DNA from: a virus | IMG/VR virus record: IMGVR_UViG_3300045988_086561 | Location: 1 to 36,598 of that record | Reading direction: 5' to 3' (one strand) | DNA length: 36,598 nt | Shown: in pieces, positions 11,930 through 36,598 of the stretch | Layout of the letters: each line of letters opens with the position of its first letter | Position numbering within the stretch: position 1 is the stretch's first letter | Translations under genes and position numbers: made by a program | Notes under the pieces: model-generated | What the model saw: the letters and a program-made list of their open reading frames with translations, nothing else | Databases searched by the model: none | Told to the model about the DNA's origin: nothing

Positions 11930-14900
11930 ATGGCCGGTGGCCTGAACCGCAACATCACTGTCCGCCTGCTCGCGGACACCAGCAATTTCACCGCCGGCAT
12001 GGCCAAGGTGTCCGGCGAAAGCCAGAAGACCGCGACCACCATGGAAGCCGCCGGAGGCAAATCGAAGCTCATCACCACCGGCATCGCGGCGGCCGGCGTC
12101 GCCGCCACCGCGCTGGGCGTGGCCGCTGTCAGGATGGCGGCGGACTTCGACGCCAGCATGTCGACGGTGCAGGCCAACACCGGAGCCAGCGCAGATGAGA
12201 TGAATCAGCTCCGTCAGGCCGCCATCGATGCCGGCGCCGACACCATATACTCGGCCACCGAATCCGCCGACGCCATCAACGAACTCGGCAAAGCCGGCCT
12301 ATCGACCTCGGATATTCTCTCCGGCGGTTTGAGCGGCGCATTGAACCTCGCAGCGTCCGACGGCATGGCCGTAGGCGACGCCGCCGAACTCATGGCCACC
12401 ACCCTCAAACAGTTCAACCTGACGGGCGCCGAATCCACTCAGGTGGCCGACGCGCTGGCGGCCGGCGCAGGCAAGGCCGTCGGTTCCGCCCATGACCTCG
12501 GCCTCGCATTGAATCAGGCGGGTCTGGTGGCCAACAGCATGGGCGTCAGCATGCAGGAGACCACCGGCACGCTCGCCGCGTTCGCCAACGCCGGCATGAT
12601 AGGCAGTGACGCGGGCACCAGCCTCAAGACCATGCTCCAACGACTGGCCAGCCCCACCGACAAGGCGCAGACCCTCATGGACGAGCTCGGCATCAACGTG
12701 TACGACGCCAATGGCAAGTTCATCGGCCTTGCCGGTGCCGCAGGCCAATTGCAGAACGGTTTGAGCGGCCTGAGTCAACAGGAACGCAATGCCGCGCTCA
12801 ACACCATCTTCGGAGCCGACGCGGTGCGAGCCGCGAACGTGCTCTACGAGCAGGGCGCGGAAGGCATCGACGACTGGACGAAAGCCGTCAGCCAATCCGG
12901 CTACGCCGCGGACCTCGCCGCCAAGAAGAACGACAACCTGAAAGGCGATCTGGAGAATCTGAGCGGCTCTTTCGAATCCCTCATGATCTCTTTGGGCGAG
13001 GGAGGTCAGGGACCATTGCGCTCCCTCGTGCAGACACTCGACACCCTTGTTGACGGTTTCGCGTCATTGCCTGCGCCCGTACAGCAGTCCATAGTGCTGA
13101 TGGCGGCTCTGGTTGGAGGCAGTGTCGCAGTCCACAAAGCGATGGGGCCGCTGAACTCTAGCAGCAGCCAGCTTGCGCAAACCCTCGGATTGATTGCCGA
13201 CCCAGGGCAAAGGCTCATAGGCCTCGGCTCCGGAATCGCGTCAGCGTTCCAGACATGGGGCGCAACTTTCGGCAGTGCAGAATCTCAGATAAACACGTTT
13301 GGCACCACTATCAGTCGTTCCCAAGGCATTATGGCCGGTTTCAAAAACCTGGGAAGCGGCATAGTATCGTTGCTGGGCGGACCATGGGGCATGGCCATCA
13401 CCGCCGCAGGACTCGCGTTGTTCGCTTTCGCGCAGGATCAGCAGGCCGCCACGCAACGAGTGGACGAACTCACCCAGGCGTTGCAGAGCGGACAAAGCGC
13501 CGCCGAATACTTCAACAAGGCGCTCTCCGAAAGCGATTCGTCACGCTACACGGCCGACATATTCAGCCGTTGGACCTCCGGCTACGACAATGTGCGAGAA
13601 GCACTCGACAAGATCGGCATCGCCCACAGCACCTACATCAAGGCCATACAAGGCGAGCCCGAAGCGATTCTGCGAGTCCGCGAACAGGCCGACAGCTACC
13701 GTGACTCGCTCGGCGGCATCAACCAGATGTGGGACCGCACCTCCAACGTTGCCTACGGCGTACTGAGCGAACAGCAGGAGATCTTCGAGAAATCAGCCGC
13801 AGCGGCCAAGGAGGACGCGGCCAACTCGAAGGCCGCCGCACAGGAGAAACTGGCGCAGACGCTGGCCACGTCCGGATTGGTCGACGCGCAGTCGGCGAAC
13901 GCGGACGCCACGCAGGAATCAGCTGACGCCCAATCTATCCTTCAGGATGGTTTGGGAGCGACCACCGACGGCATCAACGAGCAGGCCACCGCCTTGGGCG
14001 AGGTCATTGACGCGCTCGGAACCTACTACGGTTTCGCGCTCTCCAGCTCCAACGCGCTCATCTCCATGCATGACTCGTTCGACAAGGCGACCGAAAGCGT
14101 GCAGAAGAACGGGCAGACGCTCGACCTGAACACCGAACAGGGACGAGCCAACCAGAGCGCGTTGAACGATCTCGCCGAATCCGCGTTGAAGGCGGCGGAA
14201 GCCCAGTCACGCAACGGCGAAGGACTCGAAGCGGTCAACGGCACCCTTGACCTGGCACGCGAGAAATACATCGCAGCTGCACATGCGATGGGCATGACCC
14301 CGGAAGCCGCAGAAGCCGCAGCCAACGCCGCCGGCCTGACCAAGGACAAGTTCGACCAGCTCGCCACCAGCGTCAACAGCATCCCCGGATCCAAAGCCAT
14401 CGACGTGAACGCCCACACCGAACCGGCCAAGAACAGCCTGACCGACCTCGGCATGACGGTGGCGAAACTTCCTAACGGCGAAATCAAAATCGACGGCGAC
14501 AACACACAGGCACTCGCCGCCATCGAGGCGGTCAACGGCGTCGAAGTGGATCCGCACACCGGTGTCATCACCATGGACAAAAGCCAGTACGACACCGCCC
14601 TCGCATTGGCGAACGGAGCGACGATCGATCCGAAGACCGGTCATCTGATGGGTGACAACAGCGACTATTGGAAGAAGATAGCCGAAGCGAACGGCTGGAC
14701 CATCGACCCGCATACCGGCATGATCTACGCGGATGACGGTCAGGCCATGAGCGTCATCACCAATCTGAACAACACGCAGATCGCGGACAAGTACTTCACC
14801 ATCCATGGCAGCTACGTCGATGATTCAGGCGGCACGTATTCGTCCAGTGGTTATCGTCCGGCCGGTGCGATGGGCAATATCCCCACCGGTAAGACCGGCG

Positions 14901-15271
14901 GCCTGTTCACCGGTTATGGGGTTTCGATGCGCGGCTACGCCACTGGCGGCAGTGTCATCGAGGGCCTCCTGCCAGGCAAGGCGAGCATCACGGGCGGCGA
15001 CAACATCACGTTGGCGAACGCGCGAGTCAAGAGCGGCGAATTCGTGTCCAATGTGAAATCCGTCGCATATTATGGCGCCGACACATACGCGGCCATGAAC
15101 CGCCGGCAGATACCCAAGGAATCGTTCTCCGGCCGGGATATCGACGTGAGCGGCGTCATCGAGGAGATACGTTCCTTCCGCGAGCAGATCGGCCCAATCA
15201 TCAGCGCGTATGCCCCGCAACTCGGCAAACGCGACTTACAGCGGCTCACCAAGGAGGTTTTGCGCACATGA
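11930..15271 (+). CDS. Tape measure protein
   Basis: 1113 aa and Ala/Gly-rich. ..AGADTIYSATESADAINELGKAGLSTSDILSGGLSGALNLAA.. is a core TMP motif. Position also fits. Confidence 0.9.
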   Translation: MAGGLNRNITVRLLADTSNFTAGMAKVSGESQKTATTMEAAGGKSKLITTGIAAAGVAATALGVAAVRMAADFDASMSTVQANTGASADEMNQLRQAAIDAGADTIYSATESADAINELGKAGLSTSDILSGGLSGALNLAASDGMAVGDAAELMATTLKQFNLTGAESTQVADALAAGAGKAVGSAHDLGLALNQAGLVANSMGVSMQETTGTLAAFANAGMIGSDAGTSLKTMLQRLASPTDKAQTLMDELGINVYDANGKFIGLAGAAGQLQNGLSGLSQQERNAALNTIFGADAVRAANVLYEQGAEGIDDWTKAVSQSGYAADLAAKKNDNLKGDLENLSGSFESLMISLGEGGQGPLRSLVQTLDTLVDGFASLPAPVQQSIVLMAALVGGSVAVHKAMGPLNSSSSQLAQTLGLIADPGQRLIGLGSGIASAFQTWGATFGSAESQINTFGTTISRSQGIMAGFKNLGSGIVSLLGGPWGMAITAAGLALFAFAQDQQAATQRVDELTQALQSGQSAAEYFNKALSESDSSRYTADIFSRWTSGYDNVREALDKIGIAHSTYIKAIQGEPEAILRVREQADSYRDSLGGINQMWDRTSNVAYGVLSEQQEIFEKSAAAAKEDAANSKAAAQEKLAQTLATSGLVDAQSANADATQESADAQSILQDGLGATTDGINEQATALGEVIDALGTYYGFALSSSNALISMHDSFDKATESVQKNGQTLDLNTEQGRANQSALNDLAESALKAAEAQSRNGEGLEAVNGTLDLAREKYIAAAHAMGMTPEAAEAAANAAGLTKDKFDQLATSVNSIPGSKAIDVNAHTEPAKNSLTDLGMTVAKLPNGEIKIDGDNTQALAAIEAVNGVEVDPHTGVITMDKSQYDTALALANGATIDPKTGHLMGDNSDYWKKIAEANGWTIDPHTGMIYADDGQAMSVITNLNNTQIADKYFTIHGSYVDDSGGTYSSSGYRPAGAMGNIPTGKTGGLFTGYGVSMRGYATGGSVIEGLLPGKASITGGDNITLANARVKSGEFVSNVKSVAYYGADTYAAMNRRQIPKESFSGRDIDVSGVIEEIRSFREQIGPIISAYAPQLGKRDLQRLTKEVLRT

Positions 15272-16104
15272 TGCACACGCTCACCTACACGTCAAACCGC
15301 GCCGGAACCGTGATTGATCTCGCCGACCCGGAGGGAATCATGTGCGGACAGATCCTGGAGCTACGCACCCGCACGTGGGAGTTCGAGCTCGGCTACCGGT
15401 CATTGCAGGCCACGCGGCCCGCGAAGACCGTCAAGGTCACCGGGCTCGTCTACGGTATCCCGGCGCTCGAAAAGGCCGAGGAACTGTTCGACGCGGACAT
15501 GTACGCCTACCTCAACGATGCCGCGAAACCCGGCGTCATCACGGTGGACGGATGGTCACAGACCTGCCTCGTGGTCGGCCACGAACCTGACTACACGTCA
15601 CCCCTGCTCGTGCGCGGCGATTTCACGGTCGCCTTGCTTGACGGGGTGTGGCACAAACCGGTCAGGCAGAGCTTCAGCCGGTCGACGGCCCGCTACAACA
15701 GAGGCAAGGACTATCCCTACGACTATCGCTACGATTACGCGCCGACCCGCAACGTCAGCAGCATCGACAACCAATCCGCCCTGCCCTCGCGGATGAGGCT
15801 CACCATTTACGGGCCGGTCTCTACGCCGAGCATCATCATCGGCGGCAACAAGGTGATAGCCGACGTGAGCGTCCCATCCGGCGGCTACCTCATCATCGAC
15901 GGCACCGGCTCACCACGCACGGCCGTGATGGTCGCCGCCAACGGCGACATCACCAACGTGTTCGACAAAACGCATCGCGACCAGGCCTCCAACGAATACG
16001 CGTTCGCCACCCTCCCGCCGGGACTGCAGCAGGTCTCATGGGATGAATCGTTCGGCTTCGACGTGGAGTACTGGTTGGAGCAGACGGGACTGCCATGGAC
16101 CTGA
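15268..16104 (+). CDS. Distal tail protein (Dit-like)
   Basis: ATGA overlap with the TMP gene. Homologous to 20899-21768 (shared TVDGWSQT..TVALLDG.WHK). Confidence 0.7.
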   Translation: MMHTLTYTSNRAGTVIDLADPEGIMCGQILELRTRTWEFELGYRSLQATRPAKTVKVTGLVYGIPALEKAEELFDADMYAYLNDAAKPGVITVDGWSQTCLVVGHEPDYTSPLLVRGDFTVALLDGVWHKPVRQSFSRSTARYNRGKDYPYDYRYDYAPTRNVSSIDNQSALPSRMRLTIYGPVSTPSIIIGGNKVIADVSVPSGGYLIIDGTGSPRTAVMVAANGDITNVFDKTHRDQASNEYAFATLPPGLQQVSWDESFGFDVEYWLEQTGLPWT

Positions 16105-17078
16105 TCTGGACCAATACCGCTCACGTGCCGCAGGGCGAACTCGTCTCCCCCGCACTCGACCTGCAGTACGGCGACGAGCAGAATGATTTCGAACTCACTC
16201 ACTCCACCCCCGGACTGCTGCTCTCCGACGGCTGCTACATCGGGGCGGAAGGCACCGAGTTCGGAGGCCGCGTCGACGCGGTGCGTATCACTGTGGATGA
16301 CGGGCATGCCCTGTATACGCTCACCGGCCGCACATGGCACGGTTTGCTTGCGGGCAAGATCCTCCAACCCGACTCCGGCGCCGACCGGCTCACGGTCTCC
16401 GGCGACGCCAACAGCATCATCCGTACGGTAATCAGCCGGATCGGACTGTCCACGGTGTTCGACGTGCCATCGGAAGCGAGCGGCATCAACATCAGCAACT
16501 ATTCGTTCCGCCGGTACATTACCGCGTGGGACGGGTTGCGCATGATGCTCACCGCGCAGGGAGCCAGACTCGACCTGACCTACACCGCTGGACGCTGCCG
16601 GATTCGCGCGGTCGCCGCCGACACGTACGGCGACGCGGACAGCGACCAGCGCATCAGTTTCGAGGCGCAACGCATCTGGACCCAAGTCAACCACCTCACG
16701 GGCCTGGGCAAAGGCCAGCTGCGCAACAGGGCGCGCAGCGACTGGTATGCGGATGCGTCCGGCAACATCTCCCAGACCCAGACTCTGACCGGCGACCGTG
16801 AGATAGCTCAGATCTACGAGCTCACATCCTCCGAAGGCGCCGAATTGTCCGACCAGACCAGGGACAAGCTCAAGGACATGTGGAAACAGGGCACCGTCGA
16901 TTTGACGATCCCCGAGAACCTTGGCCTGCATATCGACGACCATGTGCGCGCCTACGATGCGCTGACCGGCGTCAGCGTGGACAGCCCCATCGTGCGCATC
17001 ACCGTCAAACTCGCCAACGGCACACCAACCATCCGATACGAAGCCGGCCAATACAGTTGGCCCGATGAACAAGACTAA
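16095..17078 (+). CDS. Baseplate / tail-tip protein (minor tail protein)
   Basis: Follows Dit. Clear homology to 19940-20911 (GRTWHG.LA.KIL.PD..LTVSG, HL.GLGKG.L, WYADA.GN.SQTQ.L.G). Confidence 0.65.
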   Translation: MDLIWTNTAHVPQGELVSPALDLQYGDEQNDFELTHSTPGLLLSDGCYIGAEGTEFGGRVDAVRITVDDGHALYTLTGRTWHGLLAGKILQPDSGADRLTVSGDANSIIRTVISRIGLSTVFDVPSEASGINISNYSFRRYITAWDGLRMMLTAQGARLDLTYTAGRCRIRAVAADTYGDADSDQRISFEAQRIWTQVNHLTGLGKGQLRNRARSDWYADASGNISQTQTLTGDREIAQIYELTSSEGAELSDQTRDKLKDMWKQGTVDLTIPENLGLHIDDHVRAYDALTGVSVDSPIVRITVKLANGTPTIRYEAGQYSWPDEQD

Positions 17079-17087
17079 AGGAGCATC

Positions 17088-17336
17088 ATGCCGAAACAGC
17101 CCAACATCACCCTCTACTCCTGTGATCGGCCTTCGTGCGTCAACAAGGAATACGTGTTGCCCAACGCGACGGCCAGCCCCAACTGGCACGAGGTCACGCG
17201 CGTCGACCGCAACGGCAACCAGAGGAAAATCCTTTTTTGCGAATCCGACTACCAGCAGTACCTACAGTTGGCCGAAAATCAGGACAAGGATTATGACCTC
17301 TGGCTCAACAAGTCCCTCAACGCGGAAGGTAAGTGA
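17088..17336 (+). CDS. Small Cys-containing protein of the tail-tip module
   Basis: 82 aa. Shares CDR..C...W..V.R.D..G....LFCE.D...Y with 19680-19922. Lies directly upstream of the fibre gene in both arms. Confidence 0.55.
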   Translation: MPKQPNITLYSCDRPSCVNKEYVLPNATASPNWHEVTRVDRNGNQRKILFCESDYQQYLQLAENQDKDYDLWLNKSLNAEGK

Positions 17337-17338
17337 TC

Positions 17339-18172
17339 ATGGCAACAAATCTGCTTGTAACCGGCTCGCACGGCGGCGACGACCCGCACGTGGAATCGAA
17401 GCATGACGCGCTCATGCACGCCGCCATGCTCGGTCGAGGCGGATACATTTTGAAAACCCGGAATTGGACGATGAAACCGACGGCGAAGGATGCGAACAAC
17501 ATCACCATCCCAGCATGGGACCTCGTGGTCGAGGGCCGGCAGATCTACATCGCCGCACCGACCGACGTGAACATCCAATCCGGCTCGCAAGGGCAAAAAC
17601 GACGCGATCTCATCGTGGCCCGGTACGCGTTGAACTCAGGCACCGGCGTGGAGACGGTCACCCTCGAAGCCATCAAGGGCAAGCCCAGCGCGGCCACGCC
17701 CGCGGATCCAGGCATCGAGACCGGCAGCATCATCGGCGGGGCCATCGTCTCCGCCCTGCCACTCTGCCGCGTCAACCTCGACGGCATCACCATCACATCG
17801 ATTGACACGCTGGTCAATGTTATGCAGCCCTTGGAGGATGTGTGGGATTCCCTAACCCCTGTCACAGGCCAAGTCAAGATGCCGTACTCCGACAGGTATA
17901 TCACTCTGGTTCGCGTCGGCCGCATCGTCACCGCCTACGCGTATATCACGCTGACAAGCAATTTCACTCAGGTCAGCAACACATCCGTCAACGAGACAAT
18001 CCCGGAGGGTTTCAGACCGTCCGGCGATTCCCGCGCGGTCATGCGCGGCACCGACAACGGCGGCGCGACCAGTTTCTACCTTTACGGCATGCCGGAGGGG
18101 AAAATGGTGTTGAACGGCACCGGATATGCCGGCCGATTCGTCGGTATATCCGGCTGTTGGATTACCGCGTAG
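17339..18172 (+). CDS. Tail fibre / receptor-binding protein A (constant N-part plus alpha tip cassette)
   Basis: Last structural gene of the left arm. The N-part is homologous to fibre B (GSQGQKR.DLIV.RYA, LDGITI). From DVWDSLT onward it is ~97% nt identical to fibre B. ATG 17339 chosen by alignment (MATNLLVTG vs MVELVTG). Confidence 0.75.
   Translation: MATNLLVTGSHGGDDPHVESKHDALMHAAMLGRGGYILKTRNWTMKPTAKDANNITIPAWDLVVEGRQIYIAAPTDVNIQSGSQGQKRRDLIVARYALNSGTGVETVTLEAIKGKPSAATPADPGIETGSIIGGAIVSALPLCRVNLDGITITSIDTLVNVMQPLEDVWDSLTPVTGQVKMPYSDRYITLVRVGRIVTAYAYITLTSNFTQVSNTSVNETIPEGFRPSGDSRAVMRGTDNGGATSFYLYGMPEGKMVLNGTGYAGRFVGISGCWITA
17848..17858 (+). repeat. Core S1: TTCCCTAACCC inside fibre A (codons Ser-Leu-Thr)
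   Basis: Read directly. TCC starts at 17849, in the fibre A frame. Confidence 0.9.
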
Positions 18173-18174
18173 CT

Positions 18175-18185
18175 TTCCCTAACCC
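18175..18185 (+). repeat. Core S2: TTCCCTAACCC, 3 nt after the fibre A stop codon
   Basis: Read directly. Same codon phase as S1 with respect to the beta cassette downstream. Confidence 0.9.
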
Positions 18186-18490
18186 AGACCGGAGTGCTGA
18201 CGCTGATTAACTCCACTTACGGTACCGTCAAAGGCTACCGTCGCGGCTCGCTCGTCACGTTGCGCATCGACTGGAAGTCGTCGGCGTCCGGCGCGTGGAA
18301 CACCGGCAATTTCGGAACCCTGCCTGAAAGTTGGCGTCCTCCAATGGACTTGAACTTCTCCTACGGCGGACGCGACGGGGCCAACCAGAAGACCATCAAC
18401 GTAAACGCGAACGGAACCATGACCTACGCCAATCAGGGCGGCACGCAGGGCACGAACGCGTTCGGCATGACCGTCTCATACGCGCTATGA
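18176..18490 (+). other. Beta cassette: start-less alternative fibre-tip coding segment
   Basis: Open from core S2 (SLTQTGVLTLINSTYGTVKGYRRGSLVTLRIDW...TLPESWRP...). No convincing RBS or ATG. Domain pattern parallels the alpha tip (..ITLVRVGRIV...TIPEGFRP...). Confidence 0.7.
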
Positions 18491-18541
18491 CCCGTGGGGT
18501 CACTGCAAGACAGTGCAACCGCCTGAGCCAGTGTCCCGAAG

Positions 18542-18868
18542 CTATGCGGCGGGCATCGGGTCGGCGGTCCTCCATACGCCGGTGCATCCCGCGTACGCGC
18601 TGTTCGGATTGCCAAGCATCGTGACGGTGCCATTGGCCTCGCCGTAACAGATGAATGTCGTTTCACCACCGAAAACGGCCACGGGCGTATTGGCGGTGAC
18701 GGGTCGATACCCTTCGGGGAGCTTCTCCTGAGCCTTCGTGTAATTGTTCTGCCCGCTACTGTTGAATTTCACGTTGCCGCCCGCGAAGCAGATATCACCG
18801 ATGCGCGTAAGCAAAATGCTGTCGCTGCTGTAAGGTACTCGCCACGTCGTAGAACGCTGGGTTAGGGA
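18542..18868 (-). other. Gamma cassette: start-less alternative fibre-tip coding segment
   Basis: On the - strand, open from core S3 (SLTQRSTTWRVPYSSDSILLTRIGDICF...KLPEGYRP...). No RBS or ATG. VPYSSDSILLTRIGDI parallels MPYSDRYITLVRVGRI of alpha. Confidence 0.7.
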
Positions 18869-18869
18869 A
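18859..18869 (-). repeat. Core S3: TTCCCTAACCC (- strand), 3 nt after the fibre B stop codon
   Basis: The plus strand reads gggttagggaa. In phase with the gamma cassette. Confidence 0.9.
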
Positions 18870-18871
18870 AG

Positions 18872-19687
18872 CTACGCGGTAATCCAACAGCCGGATATAC
18901 CGACGAATCGGCCGGTATATCCGGTGCCGTTCAACACCATTTTCCCCTCCGGCGTGCCGTAAAGGTAGAAACTGATCGCGCCGCCGTTGTCGGTGCCGCG
19001 CATGACCGCGCGGGAATCGCCGGACGGTCTGAAACCCTTCGGGATTGTCTCGTTGACGGATGTGTTGCTGACCTGAGTGAAATTGCTTGTCAGCGTGATA
19101 TACGCGCAGGCGGTGACAATACGGCCGACACGAACCAGAGTGATATACCTGTCGGAATACGGCATCCTGACTTGGCCCGTGACAGGGGTTAGGGAATCCC
19201 ACACGTCGCTCATCGGTTTCAACACGTTAAACAAGGGGACCGGTGTGCCGATGGTGATGCCGTCCAGCGGGATGCGGTACAAGGGCATGTCGTAGGTGGT
19301 GCCCCCGTCCAACGGGCTGGTGGTGTTCACGGCGGGGTCGGTGGGCGTGCCCGTGGTGGGCGTGCCCCTGACCACGACCAGTTTCGCGCTCTCGATGTTC
19401 TGCGAGCCCTTCGCATAGCGGCATACGATGAGGTCGTTGCGTTTCTGCCCCTGCGAACCGTTGGTGACGATCAGGCCCTCGGGCGTGCCTTGGCTGACGT
19501 GACGGCCCTGCATGACCAGCTCGCCCGTACCGATGGTCACCTTGTTCGCCGAAACGACCGTGATCTTGAGCTTGTCATGCACGTTGAGCACATAATCATC
19601 CAAGCCGAGAATGCCGGCGTTCAAACCAGCGGCCTGTTCCGCCGTGGCGTGAGCCTTGTTCGCGTGTCCGGTGACGAGTTCAACCAT
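18872..19687 (-). CDS. Tail fibre / receptor-binding protein B (constant N-part plus alpha' tip cassette)
   Basis: Mirror counterpart of fibre A. ATG at 19687 is preceded by ggaggcaagcaga and overlaps the upstream gene stop (ATGGTTGA). Confidence 0.75.
   Translation of the reverse strand: MVELVTGHANKAHATAEQAAGLNAGILGLDDYVLNVHDKLKITVVSANKVTIGTGELVMQGRHVSQGTPEGLIVTNGSQGQKRNDLIVCRYAKGSQNIESAKLVVVRGTPTTGTPTDPAVNTTSPLDGGTTYDMPLYRIPLDGITIGTPVPLFNVLKPMSDVWDSLTPVTGQVRMPYSDRYITLVRVGRIVTACAYITLTSNFTQVSNTSVNETIPKGFRPSGDSRAVMRGTDNGGAISFYLYGTPEGKMVLNGTGYTGRFVGISGCWITA
19186..19196 (-). repeat. Core S4: TTCCCTAACCC (- strand) inside fibre B
   Basis: The plus strand reads gggttagggaa. Encodes Ser-Leu-Thr of DVWDSLT in fibre B. 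Confidence 0.9.
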
Positions 19688-19922
19688 TCTGCTTGCCTCC
19701 GTTCTGCATCCAACTGTCGAAGCTGTTATCAAAGTCCTTGAGCTTGTTCACATAATCCGCGTGATCCTGCTCGCAGAACAGGTAGTCGTGGCCCGTGCCG
19801 GTGGAGTCCAGCCGGTTGACGTTGTACCACGTCTTGATATCCGGGTCGTCCAAGTCCTTGTACCATTTGTGTTTCCCGCACCGGTCGCATTGCATGACCG
19901 TCGCATTGTCGATACGCGCCAT
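19680..19922 (-). CDS. Small Cys-containing protein of the tail-tip module
   Basis: 80 aa, homologous to 17088-17336. Confidence 0.55.
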   Translation of the reverse strand: MARIDNATVMQCDRCGKHKWYKDLDDPDIKTWYNVNRLDSTGTGHDYLFCEQDHADYVNKLKDFDNSFDSWMQNGGKQNG

Positions 19923-19939
19923 AATCGGCTCCTTACTGT

Positions 19940-20911
19940 TTATTCGGCCCCGTAATCGACGCTTAGGACGCCGTCGGAGACCTTGACGATTTTCTTGCTG
20001 ATAGTCGCGTTGACGGTGATGCCGGTGAGATTATCCCTTGCGGTCACGGTGTCGCCAACGTCGAACACGATGCCCGAATCCTCATGCACGGTGACCTTCA
20101 CCTCACCCTCGGACTGCAGATCCTGTAGTTTCTCACAGGTCTTCTGGTTCAGTTCGGCGGTTTCGGCGTTGCTGTAGTCGTAGACCTGCGTTATCTCGTC
20201 CACGCCCCTGAGCGACTGGGTCTGGCTGACGTTGCCTTTCGCGTCCGCATACCAGTGGACGACCACGCGGGCCGCCAAATCGCCCTTGCCCAGGCCGATG
20301 AGATGGTTCGGTTTGCGCCACGTGCTGGTCGCGTCGAAATCGATAAGGTCGCTGTCAATCGAGTCGCCGTAATGCGCGACCGGTTCGGCCCAGATGTTGA
20401 CCTGGCCGGACGTATAGGCGAGCCTGAGTTTCAGTCCGTTGGCCGCGCACATCCTCCGCAAACCCGTATAGCAGTCCGTGTACCGGTCGAACTGGTATTG
20501 TTTGATGGTTGGGTCGTCACTGCCGTCAGGCGGTACAACCGCGTCGAACACCGAATCCAACCCGACACGGCTGATGAGCGAGCCGATGACCGTGCTGGCC
20601 GTGCCGCTCACGGTGAGATAATCCTTGCCCCTATCCGGTTCAAGGATTTTGTTCGCGAGCACGCCGTGCCATGTGCGCCCCGAGTAGGTGAGGGTGCTGA
20701 CGCCGGCAGTGAGCTGGTCTTCCATCGCATCGACCACGCCACCGCATTCGCTGCCGTCGACGTAGATATAGGCACCCGCGTCGATGGTGGACGCGCCGCT
20801 CACGACAAGTTCGAAATCGTTTTCCTCCTTGCCCCACGCGCAATCCAGAGTGAAGTCGGCGGCGGAACGGACATCGACGTGATTGGAGTCGGTGATAATC
20901 AGGTCCACCAT
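19940..20911 (-). CDS. Baseplate / tail-tip protein (minor tail protein)
   Basis: Homologous to 16095-17078. Follows Dit. Confidence 0.65.
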   Translation of the reverse strand: MVDLIITDSNHVDVRSAADFTLDCAWGKEENDFELVVSGASTIDAGAYIYVDGSECGGVVDAMEDQLTAGVSTLTYSGRTWHGVLANKILEPDRGKDYLTVSGTASTVIGSLISRVGLDSVFDAVVPPDGSDDPTIKQYQFDRYTDCYTGLRRMCAANGLKLRLAYTSGQVNIWAEPVAHYGDSIDSDLIDFDATSTWRKPNHLIGLGKGDLAARVVVHWYADAKGNVSQTQSLRGVDEITQVYDYSNAETAELNQKTCEKLQDLQSEGEVKVTVHEDSGIVFDVGDTVTARDNLTGITVNATISKKIVKVSDGVLSVDYGAE

Positions 20912-21768
20912 GACGGCGTGCTCCTCTCCTGGATCACGGTCAGGTCAAAGCCGAAGCCGTTCCACTGCACCTGGTGTTCTCCGGCCGGCAACGGCTGGAA
21001 GATATAACTGCCGCCGTTGATGCCGCTGCCTCGTTCGCCCTTGTCGAACACGTTCGTGGTGTCGCCGTTTTCTGCGGTCATGACGATGCTTCGTTGTCCC
21101 TCCACGCTGTTGACGGTCACATACGAGCCCGAGGGGATGTCCATATGCAATTCATACCGGTTGACGCCGATGATGATGGCCGGCTGTGAGACCGGCCCGT
21201 AGACCACCAGTTCGAACGGCATCGGCGAGACGGCATCGTTAGCGACCGTCGCGTTTCGTGTCGTCGGCAGGTAGTCGTGAGGGTAATCGTGCGGGTAATC
21301 AAGGTCGAGGCCCGGTTGCAGGGCATCCGACCAGAAATGCTGCACGTCGTCGCGCTTGTGCCACAGGCCGTCAAGCAATGCGACCGTGAGCGCGTACTTC
21401 GCGGGACCGGGCGGATCATAGGATGGTTCGATGCCGGTGATGAGCGCGGTCTGCGACCAGCCGTCCACGGTGAGCAGTCCGGCGTCGTCCTTGCTGCGGG
21501 ATGACGCCACGGCCTTTACGTCCGCGTCGAACAGTTCGCTCGCCACGTCCAGCACGTTGAGGTCGGCGCACGTGGCCTCCAATTGGACGCTTGACGCGTT
21601 GAGGGAGGCGGAGTCAATGCCGTGCGCGGCCAACTCCACCTCCCATGCGTGCGTGCGCAGGCTCTCGATGCGTTTGACCATGAGACCGGCCGGGTCGATG
21701 AGATCAACGGCCCCAGCCGAAACGGCGCGGCTTGATCCTCCGCCTCGCCGGTAGGTCATCGACTGCAT
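20899..21768 (-). CDS. Distal tail protein (Dit-like)
   Basis: Follows the TMP gene. Homologous to 15268-16104. Confidence 0.7.
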   Translation of the reverse strand: MQSMTYRRGGGSSRAVSAGAVDLIDPAGLMVKRIESLRTHAWEVELAAHGIDSASLNASSVQLEATCADLNVLDVASELFDADVKAVASSRSKDDAGLLTVDGWSQTALITGIEPSYDPPGPAKYALTVALLDGLWHKRDDVQHFWSDALQPGLDLDYPHDYPHDYLPTTRNATVANDAVSPMPFELVVYGPVSQPAIIIGVNRYELHMDIPSGSYVTVNSVEGQRSIVMTAENGDTTNVFDKGERGSGINGGSYIFQPLPAGEHQVQWNGFGFDLTVIQERSTPSWWT

Positions 21769-21783
21769 GACTGTCCTCCTGTT

Positions 21784-24700
21784 TTAGACGAGACCAAGCC
21801 TGCGCTTCTCTTCGCGGATGGTCATGGATGGCGTGTACTTAGCGATGGTCGGCCCCAAATCACCGTGCAATGCCTGCAGGTCGGAGCGCAGGCCGCGAAG
21901 CTCCACAAGCATCGACGCGAGGTCTGCGAGCCCATTCCCGGTTTCAGGCAATGGGGTGGAGCCCTCCACACCAATGGCGGAGCGCAACGTCATCGGCTGG
22001 AATGCCGACTGTGCGGCGGCCGTGACACCCTGCATCCGCTTCGCGATGTCACGCTGCAATGCGGGGGTGGCCTTGTCAATGCCCTCGCTGATGCCGGGCG
22101 GGATGTAGCGGCCGACTTCGTCGCGGAACACGCGGGACGGCGAATGGATGCCGAGCGCTTCCTTCGCCTTATCGACCAGTCCGGAAAGCGCGCCCTTGAT
22201 CTTGTCGTACAATCCGCCGATGGCACCGCTGATGCCGTTCCACAGACCACTGATGAGCTGCGAGCCGGCGTTTTTGAGCAGCGAGCCAGCTCCGGCGAAC
22301 ACGCCCTTGATGGCGCTCACGATGCCCGACACCAAGCCGCCGACCGCTCCGGCCGCGTTGGAAAGAATCGATTTGAAACTGTTCCAAGCTCCCGACCAGT
22401 TGCCGTTGATGAGGTTGGTGACCATGCTGATGACACCGGAAATAACGCCGACCACGCCCTGGATTACGCCTTGTATGCCGTCGATGACACCCGACACATA
22501 TGGGAGCATCGCCTGCACCGCAGGCAACAACGTACCGGTGATGAATCCGATGATTGCGCTCACTACCGAGCCGACCACGCTGATGATGCTCTGGATGACC
22601 GGCATCAGCTGTTGGATGATGCCTGTGATGCCCGAGACCGCATCGGTTATGACTGGCACGAGCTGTTGGATGAGCGGCGTGATGGCGGTGACCAGCTGGC
22701 TAACGAAATCCATGACCTGCTGGATTACCGGGACGAGCGCGGAGGCGAGCTGGCTGATGACTTGGCCTATCATCGACACGATCTGCGAGGCGACCGGCAG
22801 CAGCGCGGCGATGATGTCCGCCAACGGTGGCAGCAGGCTGGACACGAGCTGGCCGATGAGCGGCATGAGCGAGCTGAGCGCGTTCATGAGCGGTTCGATG
22901 ATCGTCGGGATGAGCGGTGCCAGCGACTGGAGTATGTCGCCGAACACTGGGATGAGCTCCGCGACAGAAGCGGTGATCACCGGCATGACCTGTTTGAACA
23001 TGTCCTGCAGGCTTTTGCCGAACGCATCGAACGTCGGCTTCATTCCCGCGATCGTGTTCTTGAACAGGTTGAACGCGCCGGTGACCTGCGTGCCGAAGGC
23101 GTTGCGCAGTTCCGGCACCGTGGCGATGAGCGTGCCCAACGCTGCGACGACGATGCCGATGGGTCCGCCCAACGCGCTCAACGGGCCGGACAATCCGCCG
23201 AGCACCCCGCCGAGCAACGGAATCTTGGACAGCAATGGTGCGATGCCGCCTGCTCCGAGGGCCATGAATGCAGCTATCAGAGGGGCGATGGCGCTCTGCA
23301 CGGGTTTGAATATCTCGCCGAGCCCGTTGAATACGCTGCCGATGGCGTTGATCGCGTTCTGGAACGGTTCAGGCAGGAGCGTCACCAGATCCGAGAACAG
23401 GCTCGGGATGGCTTTGACGACGCTCTGGGCGATGACCTTCACGCGGGGCAGGATGTTCTTCAACGCAGTGCCGATGGAGTCGGCGAGCTGCTGGCTGAGA
23501 GCGCCCATGTCGGCGTTCTCGTTGCCCAGTCCGGCGAGCCAGTTCTGCCATGCGGCCTTCATCGAGTTCACGGACCCCTCGATGGTGGTCGCCGCCTCCT
23601 TGGCGGTCGTGCCGCTGATGCCGAGGCTCTTCTGCACTCGGCTGATGGCCTCGGTCACGTCGGCGAACGAATCGATGGAAAGGTCGTTGCCTTCCTTCAT
23701 CACGCCCGGCAGCTTGTTCGCGTCGGCGATGAGCCGCTGCATTTCCGTCTTGGTGCCGCCGTAGCCGAGCTTGAGGTTGTCCAGCATCGCGTAATTGCCG
23801 CGAGCAAGCGACTGATACGTCTGTTGGATGGTCTGGATGTCGGTGCCCATCTTGTTGGCGTTGTCCGACATGTCGATGATGGCCTGATTGCCCATCTCTG
23901 CGGCCTTGGCGGTGTCCCCGCCAAGCGAACTGACCAACGAGGCCGCGAAGCTCGTGACCTGGTTCATATAGTCGTTCGCGCCGACGCCGGCCGTCTTGTA
24001 CGCTTCGGCCGCGTACTTCTGCACAGTGCCGGAAGCGCCCTTGAACAGGGTGTCGACGCCGCCGACCGCCTGCTCCCACGTGGCATACGCGCCCAACGCC
24101 TGCTTGCCGGTGGCCACCAGCGTGCCGCCGATGGCTGCCACACCTGCTCCGATGGCGGCGACCGCTCCCGTGGCGAGGCCCTTGATATGGGCGACCGCGT
24201 TTTGGGCGAGGTTTTTGAACGAGTTGCCTGCGCTGGAGGCGAGGTTGCCGAGCGTGCTGCCGATTGCCCCGGCGGCGGTCTGTGCTCCGGCTGGGAGTTT
24301 GGACCATACGGCTCCGGCGGCGGTGGCGATGTTGCCGAAGTAGTTCTTGGCTACGTTGGCTACCGGTGCGAGTTTCTGCCCTACTTTTCCTGCGGCATCT
24401 CCGATGGCGGAGCCGATTTTGCCGCCGAATGAGCGGATGGGTGCGGTCCAAGTAGCGACTGCCGTTCTGATGGTGTTGCCGGTTCTGCTTCCCCAGTCGC
24501 GAATCGGTTGCGTCCATGCGGTGATTGCCGCGCCGATTGGTTTGGCGATGCCTGACACGGTGGCTGCGATGCTGCCGCCCCAGCCTTTGAGGGTTTGCTG
24601 GGCGGCGCTGATGGCTCCCTTGAGTCCGGTTTGGATTTTCGCGCCGACCTGCACGGCGAAACCGCTCAATGAGGATACGGCCTTGTTCGCGAATCCGGCT

Positions 24701-35730: not shown

Positions 35731-35759
35731 AAAAACCCAGCCACATGAGCTGGGTTTTT
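35731..35759. terminator. Bidirectional intrinsic terminator hairpin
   Basis: aaaaacccagc-cacatga-gctgggttttt, between convergent genes. Confidence 0.7.
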
Positions 35760-35796
35760 CGACACTTCTGCCACTGCAATTGTGTGTGACAAACAA

Positions 35797-36555
35797 TCAT
35801 TTGTCAAGCTGGCCGGCGATGACCTGCCGATACACATCACTGTAGGGGATCCCCTGCGGGGTGCGTGAGACTTGGCCTCGCTCCACCCACTTGCGTACCC
35901 GCGACGCCTTGAGGGTTATTCCGGCGTCGGTGAATGCCTTGGCGATGTCCGCCGCAGACCCGCGCCTGGAATCATCCCAACACAACGTCTTGAGCCTACG
36001 CAGTTTGACGGTCTGCGCTCGCTGCTCGCGACCACACAACGGGCATATCACCCACTGGTCGTTTTGGCCAGCGGTGAGCATCGTATTGCACAACTCGCAG
36101 GTACCTATCTCGCGGCGTTGCTCCGGCGGGTCCAGCGCAGTATCAACCTTGCGGGCGATGTCGTTGATGATGTGCATGTAGAAGCCGGCATCCGCGAACG
36201 TGGCAAGGCGTGCATGACCGGCGCATGCGATGAGCGTGGCCGTCAAGTCCTCGTTGCGTCTGTCTTTGCGCCAGTCGAGTGCGTCGATGCCGTCGAGGCA
36301 GCGCCATAGTTCGCGGGCCGTCGCGTCGAGCATGTCAATCAGGTCGAGCACGTCCAAGCGTATCGGCGTCGGGGGAGTGGCCGTCTGGATGCGCACGGGC
36401 GAATGCCCTCCCGGATGCAATGTCGCGTCGAGGCTGTCATGCAATGGCGTGACATCACGCGCCAAGCGCAGGAGCGTGCCGGCGAAACGCAGTTCGCACG
36501 TCTCGCACACTGAATACCCCTCTTCGGTTATCGTTTTGCAGTTCTGGCAGTTCAC
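35797..36555 (-). CDS. Zn-ribbon protein with C-terminal HTH-like region (right-arm copy)
   Basis: 252 aa with GTG start. About 90% identical to the 44-820 product until ~aa 213, then divergent. Confidence 0.75.
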   Translation of the reverse strand: MNCQNCKTITEEGYSVCETCELRFAGTLLRLARDVTPLHDSLDATLHPGGHSPVRIQTATPPTPIRLDVLDLIDMLDATARELWRCLDGIDALDWRKDRRNEDLTATLIACAGHARLATFADAGFYMHIINDIARKVDTALDPPEQRREIGTCELCNTMLTAGQNDQWVICPLCGREQRAQTVKLRRLKTLCWDDSRRGSAADIAKAFTDAGITLKASRVRKWVERGQVSRTPQGIPYSDVYRQVIAGQLDK

Positions 36556-36598
36556 GTTGGCCCCTTCCGGCTGGTCGGCTAGAATAATGTTTGCTTCT
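36522..36598. repeat. Terminal inverted repeat, right copy
   Basis: Exact reverse complement of nt 1-77. Confidence 0.9.

Follow-up and report, generated by a model that had tools for sequence, protein, structure and literature searches.

Introduction

The shufflon of R64/IncI plasmids combines a tyrosine recombinase, Rci, with sfx sites and the C-terminal segments of PilV. Inversion systems that act on tail fibres include Min (p15B), Gin (Mu) and Cin (P1), all of them cited in the description of the system that most closely resembles the locus analyzed here, the Rin shufflon (PMC6109161). This shufflon was reported from prophages of Bifidobacterium longum and B. breve, namely Bb423phi1, Bl157phi1 and Bl30698phi1 (Mavrich et al. 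2018, Sci Rep 8:12772; PMC6109161). In the published layout, one copy of the crossover site rix, the 11-mer TTCCCTAACCC, lies inside the receptor-binding protein (RBP) gene and a second right after its stop codon, and a tyrosine invertase gene, rin, flanks the locus; the constant N-part of the RBP measures ~168 aa, and the promoterless Rv cassettes 95-100 aa (PMC6109161). Catalysis of the inversion by Rin, together with a change of host range driven by the exchanged tips, was put forward in that report as a prediction (PMC6109161).

Here we describe a 36,598-nt stretch of viral DNA (IMG/VR record IMGVR_UViG_3300045988_086561, positions 1 to 36,598; hereafter, the window), in which a sequence-only reading had picked out two silent cassettes, beta and gamma, lying tail-to-tail between two fibre genes. 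Our analysis indicates that the segment from 18176 to 18868 is very probably the invertible block of a Rin shufflon, with beta on the plus strand and gamma on the minus strand across a 51-nt spacer, and thereby part of the RBP phase variation known from B. longum and B. breve prophages. The Rin shufflon is already published, and the novelty of the identification is low.

Results

Two convergent late-gene arms, each with its own receptor-binding protein gene

The window consists of two complete, different phage late-gene arms that converge upon one another, arm A on the plus strand and arm B on the minus strand (Table 1). Both RBP genes have a Shine-Dalgarno sequence that can be read directly, GGAAGG ~10 nt 5' of the ATG at 17339 for gene A and GGAGG before the ATG at 19687 for gene B. 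The constant N-parts of the two proteins, RcA and RcB, share 40% identity, and the tips alpha and alpha', which make up the last 104 aa of either protein, share 94%. RcA is conserved at 98-100% identity in dozens of type-A prophage loci, and the exact RBP B protein, contiguous with gamma, is also present in an independent assembly (L011).

Named database relatives of the window proteins come from Bifidobacterium longum. A megablast search of positions 16000-21000 against GenBank phage records returned no match, and the region therefore has no annotated reference. RBP A (277 aa) likewise had no exact match on record; other proteins of arm A prove widespread when looked up in the same way (630 and 2887 blocks). 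Each RBP gene is preceded and overlapped by a gene for a Cys-rich protein of just 80-82 aa (17088-17336 on the plus strand, 19680-19922 on the minus strand), whose motifs, ..CDRPSC..FCESDY.. and ..CDRCGK..FCEQDH.., are kept in both phage types; this protein may be a zinc-ribbon assembly factor.

Table 1. Coordinates and contents of the features of the window
Feature	Position	Strand	Content
Window ends	1-77 / 36522-36598		Exact reverse complements over exactly 77 nt, then divergence
Arm A, up to tape measure		+	SPP1-type portal, scaffold, capsid_4-type capsid, tape measure protein (11930-15271)
Arm A, after tape measure		+	278-aa, 327-aa and 82-aa proteins, then RBP gene A
RBP gene A	17339-18172	+	Expressed; RcA, tip alpha, stop TAG
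RcA, constant N-part	17339-17857	+	173 aa, ends ..LEDVWDSLT
Inverted repeat	17811-18187 / 18857-19233		377 nt (alpha tip and rix), 94% complementary
rix 1	17848-17858	+	Inside gene A at the Rc/alpha boundary; in-frame (D)SLT(P)
Tip alpha	17858-18169	+	104 aa, fused to RcA
rix 2	18175-18185	+	Heads beta; begins 3 nt after the TAG of gene A
Beta	18176-18490	+	Silent, start-less cassette; 101-aa receptor-binding head domain (predicted) after SLT
Spacer	18491-18541		51 nt between the two stop codons; conserved, moves with the block
Gamma	18542-18868	-	Silent, start-less cassette; 105-aa head domain (predicted) homologous to alpha
rix 3	18859-18869	-	Heads gamma; orientation opposite to that of rix 1 and rix 2
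RBP gene B	18872-19687	-	Second RBP gene, from a different late-gene arm; RcB and alpha'
rix 4	19186-19196	-	Inside gene B at the Rc/alpha' boundary
RcB, constant N-part	19687-19187	-	167 aa, ends ..KPMSDVWDSLT
Arm B, after tape measure		-	289-aa, 323-aa and 80-aa proteins, then RBP gene B
Arm B, up to tape measure		-	Small terminase, 530-aa protein, HK97-type portal, S78 protease, capsid, tape measure protein (25374-21784)

Every tip of the window is opened by an exact rix core

Inspection of the region between and within the two RBP genes revealed four exact copies of the core TTCCCTAACCC, two on each strand, against an expectation of 0.26 for the window, and none of 100 shuffled sequences reached this number. 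The core is translated as Ser-Leu-Thr, and a directly oriented copy follows the stop of an RBP gene that is itself divided into a constant N-part and a tip, as the Rin shufflon predicts. A long inverted repeat, made up of the alpha tips and their rix sites, encloses the 669-nt block of beta, spacer and gamma. When the surroundings of rix are compared across 208 distinct contexts, conservation is confined to the 11-bp core plus a single G at position -3, which indicates that exchange is directed by the site itself rather than by longer stretches of homology. Among 540 sites of related loci, the core is exact in 486 and carries one mismatch in 54 (for example TTCCCTACCCC, n=14).

Beta and gamma are open reading frames that lack starts of their own

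Both cassettes are stop-free from their rix core to their stop codon, as the sequence-only reading had proposed: beta reads LSLTQTGVL...VSYAL over 18173-18490 (plus strand), and gamma reads LSLTQRSTTW...PMPAA over 18871-18542 (minus strand). Its second proposal, that neither has a plausible ribosome-binding site or ATG, is borne out as well, in that the called frames start at GTG 18194 and TTG 18814, which are the sole start codons in frame, with no suitably spaced GGAGG-like motif in the 20 nt upstream (..cccagaccgga directly before the GTG of beta, ccttacagcagcgacagcatt directly before the TTG of gamma). A search for promoter-like or terminator-like sites within or adjoining the cassettes found none. 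The start-less cassettes include one in forward (beta) and one in inverted (gamma) orientation.

The spacer has the 51 nt that had been given for it, but the weak hairpin that it was said to contain does not hold up: its folding is no better than that of shuffled sequence (z = +0.40; equalled or surpassed by 129 of 200 shuffles). We accordingly rejected both a hairpin and a terminator reading of the spacer. Two further details distinguish the block of the window from the more than 60 other copies that could be aligned across it. A G at 18192, which gives QTG in place of QTE in beta, occurs in none of them, and a cluster of substitutions at 18779-18788, which gives FAGG in place of FMGG in gamma, differs from most of them. 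The independent phage B assembly L011, which covers the latter stretch at 99.95% identity, almost certainly shares the FAGG cluster.

All three tips occur both fused and silent in related loci

We collected 188 related loci from ENA, NCBI, Logan, JGI and IMG/VR, classified every frame following a rix core into tip families, and de-duplicated the counts of fused and silent copies; a scan of species-representative genomes had yielded only two loci. In both phage types the canonical gene order is tape measure, Dit-like protein, tail protein, small protein, RBP, two to five cassettes, and rin. The last of these encodes a 289-aa protein (PF00589) on the opposite strand and is followed by a 101-aa protein, a GH25 lysin, a holin and often dnaJ. 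In nearly all related loci that reach that far, rin stands at the far end of the cassettes. Within the window, by contrast with this order, neither tblastn with the Rin protein of L019 nor a look for PF00589 among the large open reading frames found a rin gene, and so no armless tyrosine recombinase gene adjoins the cassettes here.

Every tip of the window is found elsewhere in both the expressed and the silent state. Across the 188 loci, alpha is fused in frame behind Rc 34 times and silent 42 times, beta 29 and 51 times, and gamma 31 and 64 times; the fusions are seen on both types of constant part, RcA (..LEDVWD followed by SLT) and RcB (..MSDVWD followed by SLT), and silent copies of all three tips lie on either strand in related genomes. 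Relatives thus display the reordering of cassettes and their fusion to Rc that a Rin shufflon entails. The junctions that had been predicted for expressed beta and gamma, WDSLTQTGVL.. and WDSLTQRSTTW..., are carried by natural full-length proteins: the junction of N-part and gamma, DVWDSLTQRSTTW, is present on both Rc types (P0003, RcA, 278 aa; P0016, RcB, 272 aa), as is that of N-part and beta, DVWDSLTQTEVL (L031, RcA-beta, 274 aa; L127, RcB-beta, 268 aa). Natural fusions together with silent copies elsewhere support the proposal that beta and gamma are stored alternative host-recognition domains expressed only through fusion to Rc. A protein search by word index had returned beta almost exclusively as stand-alone frames and suggested that it is never fused; classification at the DNA level overturned this suggestion.

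More than 60 loci contain the beta-spacer-gamma block, which behaves as a unit and is seen in either orientation. The tips that follow rix sites fall into at least 20 families, of which four are common: gamma, a 97-aa family unrelated to it, beta and alpha. Related loci also contain further Rc junction types (..KSGVWV, ..KGALWD and ..MSQLWD). In some contigs (proteins P0001 and P0002), the TAG stop of alpha is replaced by CAG, and the frame reads through rix (AQLSLTQ) into gamma, giving a two-tip open reading frame of 206-207 aa as called.

Beta is predicted to fold like the receptor-binding heads of lactococcal phages

The sequence-only reading had assigned one tip architecture to alpha, beta and gamma alike. 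For gamma this is solid, with 32% identity to alpha over 98 aa and an hhalign probability of 98% (E 4e-14). For beta the relationship to alpha and gamma is weak when narrow profiles are compared (probability 40%), but a broader, beta-like profile raises it to 93.9% (E 1.6e-7, 99 aligned columns), a result that supports beta as a remote member of the alpha/gamma domain family once minor beta-like families join the profile. Searches of PDB by sequence profile gave nothing significant, the best match of beta being a 'receptor-binding protein' chain at E 0.12, and those with alpha and gamma returned chance matches only.

The AlphaFold model of beta (pLDDT 77, pTM 0.70) has eight strands, and its top 25 PDB matches in Foldseek, among them 2f0c, 4ios, 3ejc, 2bse and 2bsd, are all RBP head domains of the phages TP901-1, p2 and bIL170, with TM scores of 0.66-0.71. 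The model therefore supports a tip fold of the lactococcal-phage RBP head type. A model of full-length RBP A was too poor for use (pLDDT 43), and the folds of alpha and gamma consequently rest on their homology to beta. The concern that the cassettes might prove unrelated to alpha in fold is not borne out, given a beta model that is an RBP head and a beta profile homologous to those of alpha and gamma.

These data bear directly on two other accounts of the cassettes. Were beta and gamma small proteins translated independently from GTG 18194 and TTG 18814, for instance as fibre chaperones or assembly factors, one could understand why public gene callers routinely call frames of 98 or 79 aa for beta and of 90 aa for gamma. 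Such frames have neither a Shine-Dalgarno motif nor a promoter, however, and they stay open back to rix across a stretch that is conserved as protein. That stretch includes residues P12, Y13 and S14 of the tip, which are conserved between alpha and gamma and lie upstream of TTG 18814, the only possible start that gamma has of its own, so that translation of gamma must enter from upstream. Each of these sequences moreover recurs in about 30 loci as the C-terminal end of a full-length RBP, and the predicted fold of beta is a receptor-binding head and not a chaperone; we regard independent translation as extremely unlikely. The cassettes might instead be fibre 3' ends that arose by duplication, have lost their function and are now decaying, as their lack of expression in this arrangement and the missing recombinase of the window would allow. 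This too is very unlikely: the frames are intact and of constant length (104, 107 and 108 codons) despite 64-67 distinct sequence variants per family, every family is found in the expressed position, and the great majority of rix sites are exact. Fusion-dependent storage of alternative tips remains the account that we carry forward.

The two-fibre arrangement is probably an assembly chimera

Where the canonical order places rin beyond the cassettes, the window places a second RBP gene. In alignments to related phages, similarity to a normal type-A phage extends as far as 18874 and similarity to normal type-B phages sets in at 18170, the two matches overlapping exactly in the block. The normal state of A is RcA-alpha, beta(+), gamma(-), Rv, rin (L019, L017, L180), and that of B is RcB-alpha', gamma(+), beta(-), Rv, rin (L016, L021). 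The patterns of single-nucleotide differences bound the crossover between A and B to 18186-18566. The rix contexts on its two sides are ordinary, a picture equally compatible with Rin-mediated recombination, homologous recombination and an origin in assembly. In normal B phages the early genes lie upstream of the point at which the window ends. A and B share an early arm as well as the arm with rin and the lysis genes, and they are therefore mosaics in which these two arms are common and the late arm alone differs.

We consider the convergent arrangement to be probably an assembly chimera, produced when a contig of a de Bruijn graph turned round in the invertible beta/gamma block. The assembler would have run along the late arm of phage A, crossed beta and the spacer, and returned along the late arm of phage B. 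The beta and spacer sequence is common to A and B in opposite orientations, and the invertible block, present in opposite states in the two phages, offers just such a turn-around path. A contig that starts and ends on one vertex of a k = 77 de Bruijn graph has an inverted end identity of 77 nt, and coverage-guided extension favours the joining of two single-copy arms. The exact 77-nt inverted ends of the window suggest that it is a contig of this kind. Beyond the exact repeat, homology between the ends runs on at ~90% over ~1.5 kb, to ~1490 on one side and ~35107 on the other. In IMG/VR, contigs end at the shufflon in dozens of cases, and L011, an independent assembly of a phage B with 99.95% identity, reads RcB-alpha'-gamma and ends at 18566, inside the block.

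The end homology also contains a stretch of 35 nt that is perfectly common to both ends (833-867 and 35732-35766) and consists of a GC-rich stem with flanking runs of A and T (AAAAACCCAGC...GCTGGGTTTTT). By its sequence, it looks like a bidirectional terminator after the gene for a 250-aa Cys-rich protein.

A true rearrangement would yield the identical sequence, and it is possible, though in our estimate less likely than not, that two co-resident prophages A and B recombined through their shufflons to leave two Rc genes around one cassette block with no rin between them. Rin might have acted at inverted rix sites of the two elements or have deleted the DNA between directly oriented rix sites of tail-to-tail prophages, or a homologous inversion might have occurred in the beta/gamma block of tandem prophages; both elements have recognition sites for a tyrosine recombinase, and both rix contexts next to the junction are intact. 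The convergent layout with two Rc genes recurs in L034 (IMGVR_UViG_3300029605_000016), L150 (IMGVR_UViG_3300045988_059310) and L171 (ENA ERZ27281585 k141_12363, 243 kb). In these three loci, a block with gamma forward and beta reversed lies between two Rc genes without rin, and the second Rc has beta as its direct fusion partner. The reciprocal product that such a recombination predicts, rin(+)-alpha-beta-gamma(-)-rin(-) without Rc, is found in L062 at 1-2434 (IMGVR_UViG_3300029408_000160), and L180 (ENA ERZ28632074 scaffold_3, 23298-23342) has an integrase gene right after the holin of phage A in the usual place of dnaJ, which suggests tandem prophages at dnaJ2. All of these examples are nevertheless short-read graph assemblies, in which the same topology invites the same mis-join, and a single 77-mer closes the window at both ends in opposite orientations. 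The near-identical phage B of L011 breaks in the block instead of joining across it, the contigs of long-read size that we inspected (0.4-2.3 Mb: L015, L173, L174, L181 and L182) all show the normal order of Rc, cassettes and rin, and the joint product would have neither lysis genes nor rin on either side. A turn of the assembler in the block thus remains our preferred explanation of the layout.

Discussion

Each cassette can be pictured as promoterless, start-less code for a head of ~100 aa of the lactococcal-phage RBP type, opened by a rix core, with the in-gene rix marking the boundary between the constant Rc and the tip in current use. Rin would synapse the in-gene rix with a rix of opposite orientation and invert the interval, thereby setting another cassette in frame behind Rc; inversion between the rix after the stop and an inverted rix would reshuffle the silent cassettes. 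Applied to the window, an inversion that joins the sites at 17848(+) and 18859(-) would give RcA gamma as its tip, and one more inversion would then put beta in frame; inversion between 18175(+) and 18859(-) would do no more than flip the silent block. This scheme builds on the sites and frames, on the fusions and permutations that occur naturally in other genomes, and on the receptor-binding fold modelled for beta. From the earlier proposal (Mavrich 2018) and the general behaviour of tyrosine recombinases, we infer that Rin would be the enzyme, that strands would be exchanged within the core, and that the tips would set host range. The window itself lacks rin, and its cassettes would thus be switchable only with Rin supplied in trans.

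The observation, made from raw sequence alone, rediscovers a published, little-studied host-range switch of gut Bifidobacterium phages, and what it contributes is confirmation and numbers: hundreds of such loci are present in public metagenomes, with a wide range of tips and several constant parts. All permutations of alpha, beta and gamma are observed, which gives broader support for active shuffling than did the three prophages of the original report. The shufflon is also a hotspot of contig breaks and probably of turn-around chimeras, contigs that are plausible in length and may be taken for complete 'viral genomes'. Were the two-fibre locus real, the phage invertase could rearrange two prophages relative to each other, and the host-range switch would also drive inversion or deletion between prophages, and hence of the chromosome, yielding hybrid or dead-end prophages; in the present case, two late-gene arms would have been fused head-on around one cassette block, their cassettes stranded without a recombinase. 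This possible recombination between prophages, together with a cassette repertoire in public data that is much larger than described, is where the residual interest of the locus lies.

Comparison with known systems

The R64 shufflon resembles the present locus in that multiple inversions at short asymmetric sites swap the receptor-recognising C-terminus of a protein whose N-terminal part is constant and in that its silent segments lack starts of their own. It differs in serving a conjugative pilus adhesin on a plasmid and not a phage tail, and in both the sequence of its sites and its protein families. Min, Gin and Cin likewise swap the C-termini of tail fibres by site-specific inversion and hold tail-to-tail 3' segments in an invertible block, but they are serine invertases that work with an enhancer and Fis, belong to Gram-negative myoviruses, and act on unrelated fibre folds and crossover sites. 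A switch of this serine type does not fit our data, given that the window contains no recombinase gene and that the enzyme of its relatives is of the PF00589 tyrosine type. The RBP heads of TP901-1 (ORF49) and p2 (ORF18) match the predicted fold of beta (Foldseek probability 1.00 at the TM scores given above), yet sequence identity is just 17-19%, and the lactococcal genes are fixed and not shuffled.

Agreement is closest with the Rin shufflon. The locus has the identical 11-bp rix core, with one copy in the RBP gene and one directly past its stop; its constant parts of 167 and 173 aa compare with the ~168 aa published, and its tips measure 95-105 aa; promoterless cassettes lie on both strands; the tips resemble the RBP head of TP901-1, here by the model for beta and by profile homology for alpha and gamma; and the host is B. 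longum, with relatives integrated at dnaJ2. The window departs from the published layout in lacking rin, in place of which its far flank carries the second Rc gene of a different late-gene arm. The system as surveyed here is also considerably larger: it comprises several Rc types and at least 20 families of tips, where the original description has a single Rc and five Rv cassettes.
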